Source: Minisyncoccota bacterium (GTDB lineage: Bacteria; Patescibacteriota; Minisyncoccia; UBA6257; XYB1-36-10). From it: DNA of 64,000 nucleotides. Shown here one piece after another: positions 58,890 to 63,337 of the stretch. The stretch's first letter is position 1; each line of letters opens with the position of its first letter. A program made the position numbers and the translations under genes. A model generated the notes under the pieces. The model worked only from the letters and a program-made list of their open reading frames with translations. It searched no databases and was not told where the DNA came from. The DNA lies in contig JBAZJH010000003.1 of assembly GCA_041651415.1 (NCBI GenBank), forward strand, positions 15,309 to 79,308, in the 5' to 3' direction.

Positions 58890-59335
58890 AACTCTTTTTT
58901 GGTTTACTTTGAAAAGCCAAATAAAACGAAGTTTCACGCGGCTTTATTAAAACCGCAGTTGAACTTCACCCCGACCAAAGCCGGGGTTTATCAAATCTTA
59001 AAGATTTAATAAAAAAACAAAACATATCTCTTTAATCATCCCACCATTGAGATGATCGGATAGGCCATTAGTACTCCTTGGCTAAACGCGTTGCCGCGCT
59101 TACACCTAGAGCCTATCAACGTGATAGTCTTTCACGAGGCCATATATCTAATCTTGGGAGAGGCTTCGCGCTTAGATGCTTTCAGCGCTTATCCCGTCCG
59201 AACATAGCTACCCAGCACTTCAGTTGGTACCAAAGCTGGTAGACCAGAGGTTCGTCCAACCCGGTCCTCTCGTACTAGGGTCAGCTTCCCTCAAATATTA
59301 ACGCCTGCAGCAGATAGAGACCAACCTGTCTCACG

Positions 59336-60078
59336 CATAAATTTTTTTCATTTATTACTAAATGGATCGGACTATACCATCACCCCGACCAAACTGTCGG
59401 GGGACTGACGTATTAGCATTCACTTGAACGCTCTGTTTTTAAAAACAAGTCTCTACGGGGTCAATGCACGTTCTTTTCTTCTTTTGGAATAATTAAGTTC
59501 GCGATAGCGATTAATAATTTTAAGAAGATTTTTGAAATCGTTAGCATTTTTAATTGTCTTTTTTCGCCGGATAATTTCAAGCATAAGATTTATTTGTTTC
59601 TTTTTTAAAACCGAATAAGGTTTTATCGCCTTTAGAAATTCTTGAATATCTTCGATTTTTCCTATAACACATTCGAGAATTCCATCAGAACGAATACGGA
59701 GTTTTCCGCATCCGACAAGAGAACAAATTTCTTCAAAGCTTTTTTGACATTTTTTTGATTGGAAAAAAACAACATAAAGCGCTATCTGAAAACCGTATCG
59801 ATAAGTTCGATTCGGCTTCGCTTGCGCATAAATGCTGCCATCACCATCAAGAAAACCAGCGATATAGGACTTTTTTATTTTGGATAACGATTTTAACATA
59901 CACGACTTCCCTCGGTATTATCCTAACATATGACAGGTTGAAAATCATATGAGGACTTCACCGATATGAGTCAGTTTATTCAGTCCACATTACTGTGGCT
60001 CCGATATTTTAATCGGAGTTCTGACTTTTAAAGTCAGAAAAAGCCGCCGTTTTTTTTATTACCTCGTGTTCAATTTTG
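59336..60078 (-). mobile_element. group I intron in 23S domain V at/near the I-CreI-type site (E. coli about 2593), carrying a LAGLIDADG ORF
   Basis: About 743-nt insertion between ...GGTTCAAACCGT and CGTGAGACAGGTTGG exon sequences; ends with G; contains HE ORF. Confidence 0.8.
59453..59899 (-). CDS. LAGLIDADG homing endonuclease (intron-encoded)
   Basis: IAGFLDGDGSIYAQ LAGLIDADG motif; single-motif about 148 aa (I-CreI-like homodimer type). Confidence 0.85.
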   Translation of the reverse strand: MLKSLSKIKKSYIAGFLDGDGSIYAQAKPNRTYRYGFQIALYVVFFQSKKCQKSFEEICSLVGCGKLRIRSDGILECVIGKIEDIQEFLKAIKPYSVLKKKQINLMLEIIRRKKTIKNANDFKNLLKIINRYRELNYSKRRKERALTP

Positions 60079-61582
60079 ACGGTTTGAACCCAGCTCGCGT
60101 ACCTTTTTAATTGGCGAACAGCCAAACGCTTGGGACCTTCTCCAGCCCCGCGCTAAGATGAGCCGACATCGAGGTGCCGAACCGCGCCGTCGCTATGGAC
60201 GCTCGGGCGCGACTAGCCTGTTATCCCCGGGGTAGCTTTTAGCCGTTGTCTCCGACCTTCCTGTAAAGGTTCGTCGGGTCACTAAGTTCTGCTTTCGCAT
60301 CTGCTCGACTTGTAAGTCTTGCAGTTAAGCCGGCTTATGCCTTTACACATTAGGCTCGATTTCCATCCGAGCCAAGCCGACCTTTAAACTCCTCCGTTAC
60401 TTTTTAGGAGGATTCCGCCCCAGAAAAACTGCCCGCCAGACACTGTTCCAATAAAGTTTACCTTTCGGACTCTTTATCGGTTAGAACTTAAATCATTAAA
60501 GGGTGGTATCTCATTTGCGGCTCCACTCTGACCGAAATCAAAGTTTCAAAGCCTGCCACCTATGCTGCGCAGCAACAATTTAAGGCCAATATCAAGCTAC
60601 AGTAAAGCTCCCGGGGTCTTTTCGTCCCGCTGCAGGTATCCCGCGTCTTCACGGGAATCGCATTTTCACCGAGCTTCTCGCTGAGACAGTTCTCCAGTCG
60701 TTACACCTTTCGTGCGCTCCGGAACTTACCCGGAAAGGAATTGCGCTACCTTAGAACGATTATAGTTATCGCTGACATTGACGAGGGCTTCGGGCAGTCA
60801 GCACGCGCTGCGCGCAAGTTATAAAGTTTATAAAGTTGAAAGTTAAAAGTATTTGTTTTTACTTTTTGAACTTTATGAACTTTTTTCTTTATAAACTGCG
60901 TGCAACGCATACCGCCACCGTTAACCTTCTCGCATCGGTCAGGTGTCACCCCCTATACATCCACTTGCGTGTTAGCAGGGAGCTGTGTTTTTGGTAAACA
61001 GTCGCCAGAGAAACTTTAGCTGCGGGTCCGATAAAATCGGACCAGGCCTTATTGCGAACTTACGGCCGCTTTTTTGCCGAGTTCCTTAGCGAGAAATCAC
61101 TCGTTCTCCTTGGGCTCCTCGCCCTATCCACCTGTGTCGGTTTCCGGTACGGATACCTATAAATTAACCCTAGAGGCTTTTCTTGGAAGGCTCTTCAGCC
61201 AAATCGCCTTAGCCAAAGCTAAAGCTTTCGCCTTATTTTGAAGTTTCCATTAAAGGAAGACGCGCGCATTTGTCGCGAGCCGCTTCTTAAATATAGCAAC
61301 GCCAAACCATTAAGGCGTTTGACCTTATTTCCTCCGTCCCCCCGTTAGAATTTATAGGCAGGGCTGGAATATTAACCAGCTACCCATCGGCTGCGGCTTT
61401 CGCCATCGCCTTAGGACCGCCTAACCCGTGGATGATTGCCAGTGCCACGGAAACCTTGAATTTTCGGAGAGCCGATTTCCCATCGGCTTTGTGGTTACTC
61501 ATGCCAGCATTCTCTCTTCCATCCGCTCCACGAGCCCTCGCGGGTCTCGCTTCGGCGCAAATGGAATGCTCTCCTACCACCA

Positions 61583-61680
61583 GCCCCACTTTTGTTCGTG
61601 ATATCAATATAACTTATCAGCGTTTTAAAAAATATCGCTGTTAATTTTTGAATCAACGTCATAAACAAAAGTGGAGCTGG
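61583..61680 (-). other. extended AU-rich hairpin in 23S helix-45 region (candidate intervening sequence)
   Basis: CCACTTTTGTT...AACAAAAGTGG long stem replacing the about 22-nt helix-45 tip, a classical IVS site. Confidence 0.45.
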
Positions 61681-63337
61681 TCCGCAACGTCGGTAGCTTA
61701 CTTAGCCCCGCACATTTTCGGCGCGCCTTGCCATTCGTCATAAAGGCGAATCGAATAGTGAGTTGTTACACACTCTTTAAAGGATGGCTACCTCTGAGCC
61801 CACCTCCTATCTGTCTATGGCACGACACTACCTCCTTTGCACTTAGTAAGCATTTAGGGACCTTAGTTGGCGGTCTGGGCTGTTTCCCTTTCGAACATGG
61901 AGCTTAGCCCCCACATTCTAACTCCCGAGCTATATTGTATGGTATTCGGAGTTTGATTAGTCTGGCGGAGTTTCCCCCTACTCAGACTATCCAGTGCTCT
62001 ACCCCCACACATAAACGCTCAAGGCTAGCCCTAAAGCTATTTCGGAGAGAACCAGCTATTACCGAGTTCGATTAGCTTTTCACTCCTTACCCCAGTTCAT
62101 CCGAAGATTTTGAACGGTCTACCGGTTCGGGCTTCCCTCCGATTTTCATCGGAGTTCACCCTGACCAGGGCAAGCTCACCCGGCTTCGGGTCTTATCCGG
62201 CTCCTCATACGCGCTATTAACGCTCGCTTTCACTACGCCTTCCTCCCGTAGGAGTTAGACAAAGGAGACAGATAAACTCGCTGGCTCATTCTTCAATAGG
62301 CACACGGTTACCCTTACGGGCTTCCGTTCCTTGTAAGCATAAGGTTTCAGATTCTATTTCATCGGCCTCACCGGCCTGCTTTTCACCTTTCCCTCACGGT
62401 ACTAGTTCGCTATCGGTCGCCAAGGATATTTAGCCTTACGAGACAGTTCTCGCAGATTCCCTCGAAGTGTTCATTTCTCGAGGTACTTAAGGATAAATAC
62501 GAAAAGTTTGTTTGTTTTCGCCTACGGGGCTTTCACCCTCTTTGGCGCGGCTTTCCAGCACGCTTCCGCTAACAAACAAATTTTTGACTTTTCTCCCAGC
62601 CAATAACTCTTCCATAAAAATTTTTAAAGAAGAGTTATTAGCTGAAAATGTACTTACCTTACAACCCTTAATTTTCAGCAAGCTGAAAATTCAGTTTAGG
62701 CTCTTCCCCGTTCGCTCGCCGCTACTAAGGGAATCATAGTTATTTTATCTTCCTCCGGGTACTGAGATGTTTCACTTCCCCGGGTGCGCTCTCCGACCGA
62801 AGTCAGAGTTGCAAGAGTTTATCTTGCAGGGTTTCCCCATTTGGAAATTCTCGGATCATAGGTTGCTACACACCTTCCCGAGACGTTTCGCCGCTACGCC
62901 GCGTCCTTCATCGCTCCTTGGTGCCAAGGCATCCACCTTACGCTCTTAATTCCGACCATCTCAATAATGAGATAGTTTTTGAACCCATTCCTATAAAATA
63001 GGCGAGGGTTCTTGATTAGAGAATGCTTTGCTTTTTATTTTACCTTCGCGCTCTTTTGGCGCGAAAGAATACCTGTTATTTTACTTAGCTTTTCAGTTGT
63101 AAACGTTCCGTCGAGGCATTCGTTAAACTTCCTTTTCTTTCAGCCTGGAATCTTTTTTAAAAAGAGCCCAGGCCGAGAGAAAAAGCGGATTCAATTTTAC
63201 TAAACTTTTTGCCTAAAAGCAAGGAGGGAAAAATAGAGATAAAAAAACCGCGTTTTACGCGGCTACAACAACCAAACACAGGACTTTTTTAGCCGCTTGT
63301 TTTTTGTTCTTTTTCCTTGATACTCATAAGCTTTTTT

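Follow-up and report, generated by a model that had tools for sequence, protein, structure and literature searches.

The question raised by one ribosomal RNA (rRNA) locus in a Minisyncoccota bacterium is what interrupts and lengthens its 23S gene, and which of the extra segments would still be present in the working ribosome. The locus lies on the minus strand of a 64,000-nucleotide stretch of DNA (contig JBAZJH010000003.1 of assembly GCA_041651415.1, positions 15,309 to 79,308), here called the window, whose own numbering is used throughout. With considerable confidence it can be described as the 23S-5S transcription unit of a Patescibacteria genome whose 16S gene is elsewhere, the 23S gene carrying a group I intron, of the family known from chloroplasts and cyanobacteria, at the position termed L2593 and three AU-rich hairpins. 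An earlier note, written from the letters of the sequence, had arrived at much of this description, and its claims are taken up where the evidence bears on them.

The extent of the gene has to be settled first, as automated annotation is misled by its contents. An Rfam cmscan of the window gives a minus-strand match to LSU_rRNA_bacteria (RF02541) at 2051.6 bits that is reported as complete (model positions 1-2925) and yet stops at 60008, inside the intron; this end is an artefact of the intron. The minus-strand sequence reads ...GGGTTCAAACCGT, then 743 nt, then CGTGAGACAGGTTGG..., and continues through the sarcin-ricin loop to about 59050. When the intron is removed the gene aligns end to end with Escherichia coli rrlH (2825 aligned columns, 67% identity), the first exon (60079-62958) corresponding to E. 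coli 1-2593, with the alignment ending at U2593, and the second (59335 to about 59050, the 3′ end being approximate to within about 5 nt), in which the sarcin-ricin loop sequence is located, to E. coli 2594-2904. With the 3′ exon aligned after the intron, the 23S gene thus runs from 62958 to about 59050, the approximately 3.9 kb given in the earlier note, and the comparison with E. coli 23S also puts the inserts at the sites claimed there, with colinear exons. (When the complete 3.9-kb gene was aligned globally to E. coli with MAFFT, the intron was shifted to the 3′ end, and this alignment was replaced by the intron-removed one.) Every conserved 23S centre that was checked is intact.

The domain V insertion, put at about 743 nt in the earlier note and located there after AACCGT, is exactly 743 nt (60078-59336, minus strand), starting after the exon-terminal U and ending in G. 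It is flanked by ...AACCGT and CGTGAGACAG; position 2593 is the last base of the E. coli motif GAACGT, and as the T homologous to it is the base that precedes the intron, the insertion lies directly after E. coli U2593. This is L2593, which we take to be the site of the Chlamydomonas Cr.LSU (I-CreI) and Monomastix (I-MsoI) introns, and the I-CreI site of the earlier note is thereby confirmed. The sole long open reading frame (ORF) of the insert (59899-59453, minus strand) encodes 148 amino acids, and the single LAGLIDADG motif ascribed to it is borne out: there is one Pfam match, to PF00961 (LAGLIDADG_1, 1.4e-9, residues 13-105), and among solved structures I-CreI is matched at 6.5e-20 (residues 11-144) and I-MsoI at 8e-17. 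Across 29 aligned homologues D20, Q47 and K99 do not vary, and in the structure-match alignment they line up with the catalytic residues of I-CreI (D20, Q47 and K98 in its own numbering). The product is a single-motif enzyme of I-CreI type, presumably acting as a homodimer.

Whether the RNA is that of a group I intron is not decided by Rfam. The Intron_gpI model (RF00028) gives a partial match of 34.6 bits (E = 5e-7 on a 776-nt stretch), and its alignment is credible for the 3′ half only, comprising P3′, P8, the J8/7-P7′ string UGAUGGUAUAGUC and P9. The model is broken by the 447-nt ORF in L6 together with P7.1/P7.2, and since its score alone is not decisive, comparative evidence from homologous introns was used. 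The family from which these were taken is large. A protein search returned 233 homologues of the endonuclease, many labelled with Parcubacteria-group taxa, and at least 550 stretches of species-representative genomes encode a relative; the comparison used the best 80 of these at least 550 stretches, nearly all of them labelled Patescibacteria. In 76 of the 80, exon 1 aligns to its final base and exon 2 from its first, with 601-824 nt between them, and by the sequence of both junctions this is the same intron at the same site.

Setting the flanks of the ORFs side by side reveals the architecture. A guide, 5′-(C)ACG|GCGG-3′, is followed by P2 with a GNRA loop, P3, P4 and a short P5, with the ORF in the P6 loop; P7 (G[A]GACU/AGUCC, with a bulged A), which is invariant in the family, begins directly after the stop codon; and after P3′ come P8, then P9 with a GNRA loop, and the terminal G of the intron. 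In the window the internal guide sequence occupies 60044-60050, with ACG (60050-60048) pairing with 3′-exon CGU as P10 and GCGG (60047-60044) pairing with 5′-exon CCGU as P1, which has a U-G wobble at the splice site. The 5′ half of the ribozyme (59904-60037), assigned by family comparison and pair counts, contains two window-specific hairpins (60037-59999), P2 with its GUAA loop, the 5′ strand of P3, P4, P5 and the 5′ strand of P6. The 3′ core half (59369-59453), assigned from the partial Rfam alignment and from covariation in P3 and P8, contains the 5′ strand of P7 (GAGACU with the bulged A), P7.1 (59447-59434) and P7.2 (59431-59416), which lie between the GAGACU of P7 and the GUCAGU of P3′, then the 3′ strand of P3, P8, J8/7 and the 3′ strand of P7 (UAUAGUCC).

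When the hand-built P2-P9 structure was projected on a MAFFT alignment of 64 ORF-deleted introns, 93.8% of cells formed standard pairs, as against 33-44% when the 3′ partner was slid by 1-3 columns and 81% (maximum 82%) when columns were shuffled. Compensatory double changes occur in 23 of the 44 pairs, mostly in P2, P3, P8 and P9, with a G-C to A-T change of P4 in 13 sequences and, in P6, C-G to T-A (33 to 27). The last involves coding sequence. The final sense codons of the endonuclease gene, TTG ACC CCG (Leu-Thr-Pro, 59453-59465, kept family-wide), double as the 3′ strand of P6, whose 5′ strand is at 59904-59911, and the stop codon abuts P7; the choice between the synonymous leucine codons TTG and TTA covaries, with the same 33 to 27 split, with C or T of the 5′ strand in the outermost P6 pair. 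At the exon boundaries, the 5′ exon ends in ACCGT in all 76 relatives, 74 of 77 introns contain GGCGG, the P10 guide and the 3′ exon change in concert (CACG with CGTG, TACG with CGTA, GCG with CGC), and a 3′-terminal G is found in 76 of the 77, the window intron ending in ...UUUAUG. All core pairings are intact in the window copy. On this comparative footing the group I assignment appears secure, and the intron identification of the earlier note is upheld by covariation across the 64 homologous introns though the Rfam score is below threshold.

From this architecture a conventional life cycle can be proposed. The intron RNA would fold into P1-P10, with P7.1/P7.2 between P7 and P3′, and would splice itself out in the usual two transesterification steps, the first initiated by guanosine, with the guide 5′-ACG|GCGG-3′ positioned so as to align both exons; the predicted ligated junction is AACCGU|CGUGAGAC, 60079 being joined to 59335. 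A homodimer of the 148-residue protein would cut the uninterrupted 23S site CAAACCGT|CGTGAGACAGGTTG, and repair after the cut would copy the intron in. With the ORF intact, such homing by cleavage and repair is to be expected. The uninterrupted 32-nt site CTGGGTTCAAACCGTCGTGAGACAGGTTGGTC is present in at least 120 metagenome stretches, so that empty targets are common among organisms of this kind. A different enzyme from the candidate phyla radiation (CPR), I-ShaI, cleaves its own insertion site and dimerises (Tsurumaki et al. 2024, J Bacteriol, PMC11270868). The window copy has no entry in the species-representative set, where its endonuclease is matched at 67-70% identity at best and its 23S at about 85%.

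A separate observation on the relatives concerns a second break in the 3′ exon, 63-66 nt past L2593 and thus at about E. coli 2656-2659, in loci L003, L005, L008, L016, L025, L031, L034, L049, L058, L059, L064, L073 and L081. It indicates a further insertion in those relatives and fits the LAGLIDADG site at 2657 described by Tsurumaki et al.; the window 23S has no insert there.

The hairpins are a different matter, as here the fate of the extra RNA is at issue. Relative to E. coli the gene has 105 extra nucleotides after 281 (62687-62583, domain I), 81 after 1163 and 1174 (61681-61590, helix 45 or H45) and 96 after 1870 (60904-60809, the tip of helix 68 or H68), together with small differences of 10-18 nt each at other sites. 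One of the latter, an 18-nt extra after E. coli 1119, folds no better than shuffles (z -0.7) and was taken as ordinary length variation. The three larger ones, with 26-30% G+C compared with 46% for the 23S gene, form a 20-bp AU-rich domain-I hairpin in the 5′ strand of the H16-H18 arm (62594-62647, -29.5 kcal/mol, z -6.5), an extended H45 tip with a perfect basal stem of 19 bp (61579-61681, -46.1 kcal/mol, z -7.0) and an extended H68 tip (60800-60913, -43.9 kcal/mol, z -6.7); for each, none of 200 shuffles folds as well. Compared with one another as possible copies of one element, they show no similarity, their scores being 16-20 where the background is near 22. The long AU-rich stems that the earlier note had pointed out in H45 and near H68 are therefore real features of the fold. 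Its domain-I expansion of about 62570-62690 has to be trimmed: an extra hairpin exists, and the first approximately 30 nt (62687 to about 62655) form a hairpin of the bacterial consensus that is missing only in E. coli, leaving a true extra of about 58 nt inserted relative to the Rfam consensus.

Relatives distinguish among the three. Insert sizes were taken between conserved anchors of 13-18 nt, with at most 3 substitutions, in intron-bearing genome loci and intron-less metagenome loci, and a sample was folded. (Short degenerate anchors matched wrong places and were replaced by these longer ones; H45 distances above about 400 nt, which may reflect further introns or anchor errors, were left uninterpreted.) The domain-I segment is 100-312 nt in all relatives, as against 67 nt in E. 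coli, two metagenome values of 1229 nt being left uninterpreted, and a hairpin of unrelated sequence occupies that place in every relative that was folded. To judge from the comparison, this hairpin is a lineage-wide helix that the ribosome probably keeps. An unexpanded H45 is seen in 7 of 28 genome relatives and 12 of 33 metagenome relatives, including the close relative L008, and where it is expanded the hairpins are of 100-300 nt and unrelated sequence. H68 is expanded in just 3 of 22 genome and 3 of 32 metagenome relatives, 6 of 54 together.

Intervening sequences (IVSs) in H45 and H25 are excised by RNase III from the 23S rRNA of Salmonella, Yersinia, Campylobacter, Leptospira and Coxiella. 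By analogy with these, the H45 insert behaves like a classical RNase III-excised IVS: it shares with them the helix tip, a size of about 80-100 nt, a long stem and a sporadic occurrence among relatives. The insert in H68, which lies outside the two classical IVS sites, represents the same phenomenon in a less frequent form. Unlike those genes, the window gene has no H25 insert, its H68-tip and domain-I inserts are off the two classical sites, and its inserts are known here from sequence. Most likely, then, the H45 insert, and less certainly that in H68, would be cut out by RNase III with no religation, giving a fragmented 23S.

The alternative that survives best is that the mature ribosome keeps all three hairpins, as bacterial expansion segments, in an unfragmented 23S. 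The inserts do lengthen existing helices at solvent-exposed tips, with the flanking conserved sequence intact, and the domain-I hairpin, found at the same place in every relative folded with stems that covary and are unrelated in sequence, therefore behaves as a structural helix. H45, however, is a classic RNase III IVS site whose insert is absent from a relative as close as L008; long, near-perfect AU-rich duplexes of at least 19 bp are good RNase III substrates; and short CPR insertions at known IVS sites are held to be probable IVSs (PMC11270868). Retention of all three has a real, if lesser, chance of being right, and excision at H45 is the reading preferred here.

Several points weigh against the account given so far. 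The Intron_gpI score of 34.6 is below the gathering score of 50, and in its 5′ half the RF00028 alignment strays into the ORF. P1 of the window intron is short, 4-5 bp, and with AACG as its guide, in place of the CACG of the family, this copy can form no more than 3 bp of P10. To our knowledge H68 is not an established site in the IVS literature. An RNase III (rnc) signature motif was not found in the six frames of the 64-kb window plus contig L001 (introduced below), a search uninformative for the genome as a whole.

Some of these same features could be taken as signs that the intron has decayed and no longer splices, or that the 23S is a pseudogene: the subthreshold Rfam score, the weakened P10, and two extra 7-bp hairpins near P2 (CUGACUU...AAGUCAG and CUCCGAU...AUCGGAG, 59999-60037), which stand before it and have no counterpart in the 21 most similar family members. 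Yet the core pairings are all intact, the ORF is complete and keeps its catalytic residues, and the exons reach 2051 bits, with the conserved centres that were checked undamaged. As CPR genomes usually carry a single 23S copy (PMC11270868), a domain V insert that failed to splice would be lethal, and decay is accordingly very unlikely.

Evidence on the integrity of the assembly comes from the one other public contig on which the exact endonuclease protein is present, L001, which belongs to a separate public ENA assembly, perhaps made from the same sample. Over 12.7 kb the identity of L001 with the window is 99.94%, and L001 continues for 5.9 kb past the window's end. More improbable still than decay is the idea that the inserts arose in assembly, as artefacts or through the chimeric joining of rRNA genes from different organisms, for while mis-joins at rRNA genes are frequent in metagenome assemblies and at least one of the two assemblies may be mosaic where they part in rpoC, L001 has the same 23S-5S region with 1 mismatch in the rRNA unit among 8 in the 12.7 kb, the same intron is at the same site in 76 other genome loci, and the exons are continuous and colinear with E. 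coli across every insert. As to that point in rpoC (window 51284, L001 18616), the two sequences diverge abruptly there while still being homologous, and the abruptness implies either a mosaic of two strains or species in one assembly or a recombination breakpoint.

The identity of the host is as the earlier note had attributed it. The nearest 23S genes among the loci compared are from two Candidatus Liptonbacteria genomes (84.6% and 82.7% identity), the closest intron-less metagenome 23S allele is at 81.6%, and the genome and metagenome scans contained no relative above 85% 23S identity apart from L001. Judged by these sequence distances the host is a Parcubacteria-type member of the Patescibacteria (CPR), near Ca. 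Liptonbacteria and with no close representative in the reference set.

The remaining features of the unit are of a more ordinary kind. The 5S rRNA (58776-58882, minus strand; RF00001, 64.2 bits) lies about 165 nt downstream of the 23S, and apart from these two Rfam reports four tRNAs elsewhere in the window. According to RNAduplex, a 5′ strand at 62941-62995 pairs with the 3′ trailer at 59016-59066 (-40.1 kcal/mol) to extend helix 1 by about 24 contiguous pairs, a predicted stem of the type that is typically the substrate for RNase III maturation. Directly upstream is a gene (63977-63438, minus strand) for a small membrane protein with a mechanosensitive-channel transmembrane-helix domain (PF05552), as expected from the earlier note, which had placed a protein gene and a promoter there. 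The promoter is less straightforward. The best promoter-like site, TTGACT-18-TACAAT (63338-63367, minus strand), is about 380 nt upstream of the 23S, and with a terminator-like hairpin at 63264-63246 between it and the 23S start its assignment to the 23S is uncertain; the real promoter may be a weaker TTGCTT-17-TAAAAT near 63222-63190. A 12-codon mini-ORF (MSIKEKEQKTSG) also lies between the stronger site and the 23S start, and a boxA-like GCTCTTTTTAAAAAAG is present within a hairpin loop near 63170.

No small-subunit rRNA is detected by Rfam anywhere in the 64-kb window, nor on L001, including the 5.9 kb beyond the window end; there is therefore no 16S within 6.9 kb upstream or 58 kb downstream of the 23S. 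About 31 relatives are covered for 2.6 kb or more upstream, and only 2 of these, by our own count, have a 16S there. Taking a separation above about 1.5 kb as the mark of unlinked genes, the 16S is unlinked to the 23S here, in agreement with the earlier note. That note had further placed tRNA-Ile and tRNA-Ala about 21 kb away; the distance is 20.6 kb and needs only the correction that a tRNA-Val lies between them, the cluster of tRNA-Ile(GAU), tRNA-Val(GAC) and tRNA-Ala(UGC) at 38414-37501 being detached from both the 23S-5S and the 16S. Between tRNA-Ile and tRNA-Val there is a 17-nt direct repeat (AGCCCCGATAAAATCGG, 38307-38340).

How much of this is new can be judged by comparison with systems already described. 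Of 348 CPR 23S genes surveyed by Tsurumaki et al. (2024, PMC11270868), 82% have insertions, 45% of the insertions being group I introns; LAGLIDADG_1 ORFs are concentrated at 1917, 1931, 1952, 2593, 2604 and 2657, and short non-intron insertions at known IVS sites are read as IVSs, the numbered insertion sites 23IS1-5 of that paper being positioned in its figures only. The window intron agrees with the CPR L2593 LAGLIDADG_1 introns in host clade, position, single-domain ORF and group-I-like RNA, and the locus agrees with theirs in having several short non-intron insertions at known IVS sites; it differs in that the best endonuclease is only 67-70% identical and in the two extra hairpins beside P2. 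In the account of Haugen et al. (2007, PMC1995217), the L2593 introns of the cyanobacteria Synechococcus C1/C9 and Thermosynechococcus measure 744-748 nt, P5 and P2 being short and the P7.1/P7.2 extension large. Compared by description with these and their chloroplast counterparts, the window intron has the same site, a near-equal length (743 against 744-748 nt), P7.1/P7.2 and helices P5 and P2 that are likewise short, and it encodes a LAGLIDADG endonuclease of the single-motif kind, a homologue of I-CreI/I-MsoI; it is set apart by its Patescibacteria host. A further difference is in the target. The half-sites here are CAAACCGT...GGTTG, in place of what we take to be CAAAACGT...GTTTG for I-CreI, the differences falling at positions that covary in rRNA helix 93. 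Lastly, rRNA genes are reported to be predominantly unlinked in Patescibacteria (Brewer et al. 2019, bioRxiv 10.1101/705046), and a 23S-5S apart from the 16S in the same clade conforms to this; what goes beyond that description is that tRNA-Ile and tRNA-Ala are detached too, together with tRNA-Val, 20.6 kb off. Every part of the locus is thus already described for CPR 23S genes, for L2593 introns or for unlinked rRNA, and the one detail that goes beyond those descriptions is the resemblance of the H68 insert to a repeat found upstream of several genes.

The arms of the H68 insert are made of (A/T)AAAGTT units, and tandem arrays of the same unit, with periods of 7-9, 16 and 25, are present in the window at 7075-7107, 12150-12220, 25517-25604, about 26620-26645 and 27513-27574. 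Each of these arrays immediately precedes the start of a gene on the minus strand, the genes being two paralogues of mreB, a kinase of the pfkB family and a split transketolase, both of whose halves are preceded by an array. Aligned without gaps to 25537-25579, the 5′ arm agrees in about 35 of 42 columns, with a score of 49 where dinucleotide shuffles give 30.8 +/- 2.5 (maximum 36); the arms of the H45 and domain-I hairpins have nothing comparable among the dispersed arrays. It is conceivable, though we think it improbable, that the H68 hairpin is a palindromic copy of this genome-specific short tandem repeat and not a horizontally acquired IVS. The likeness could instead be a convergence of AT-rich repeats. 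A motif shared between inserts of one genome is no general rule, with 3 of 12 same-genome pairs reaching the 95th percentile of cross-genome scores, clear in L070 only and marginal in two others.

Some observations on other loci may be recorded alongside. The 1.3-kb H45 insertion of L019 also matches the repeat (37 nt, 89%). In L070, L082 and L057 the arms of H45 or domain-I hairpins are themselves short tandem repeats, e.g. TCGGATNT/TCAGATNT in L070 and a CGAAT type in L082, and in L070 the same motif is in the domain-I and H45 inserts (score 45, the 95th percentile being 30).

For annotation, the consequences are practical. Standard covariance-model annotation would truncate this 23S at the intron, losing a 286-nt 3′ exon with the sarcin-ricin loop, and ORF-bearing L2593 introns escape the group I model of Rfam; the 76 further intron loci, the 64 aligned ORF-deleted introns and the at least 120 empty sites could seed both a better model and a study of homing dynamics. 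For the biology of the Patescibacteria, the locus adds little that is new, being one more intron-rich, insertion-rich, unlinked rRNA gene. The link between the H68 insert and the repeat, if real, bears on the source of the non-intron rRNA insertions, which would have, in Patescibacteria, an endogenous, repeat-seeded origin. More speculatively, if the hairpin were retained, a set of mRNAs would have leaders complementary to one rRNA expansion arm.

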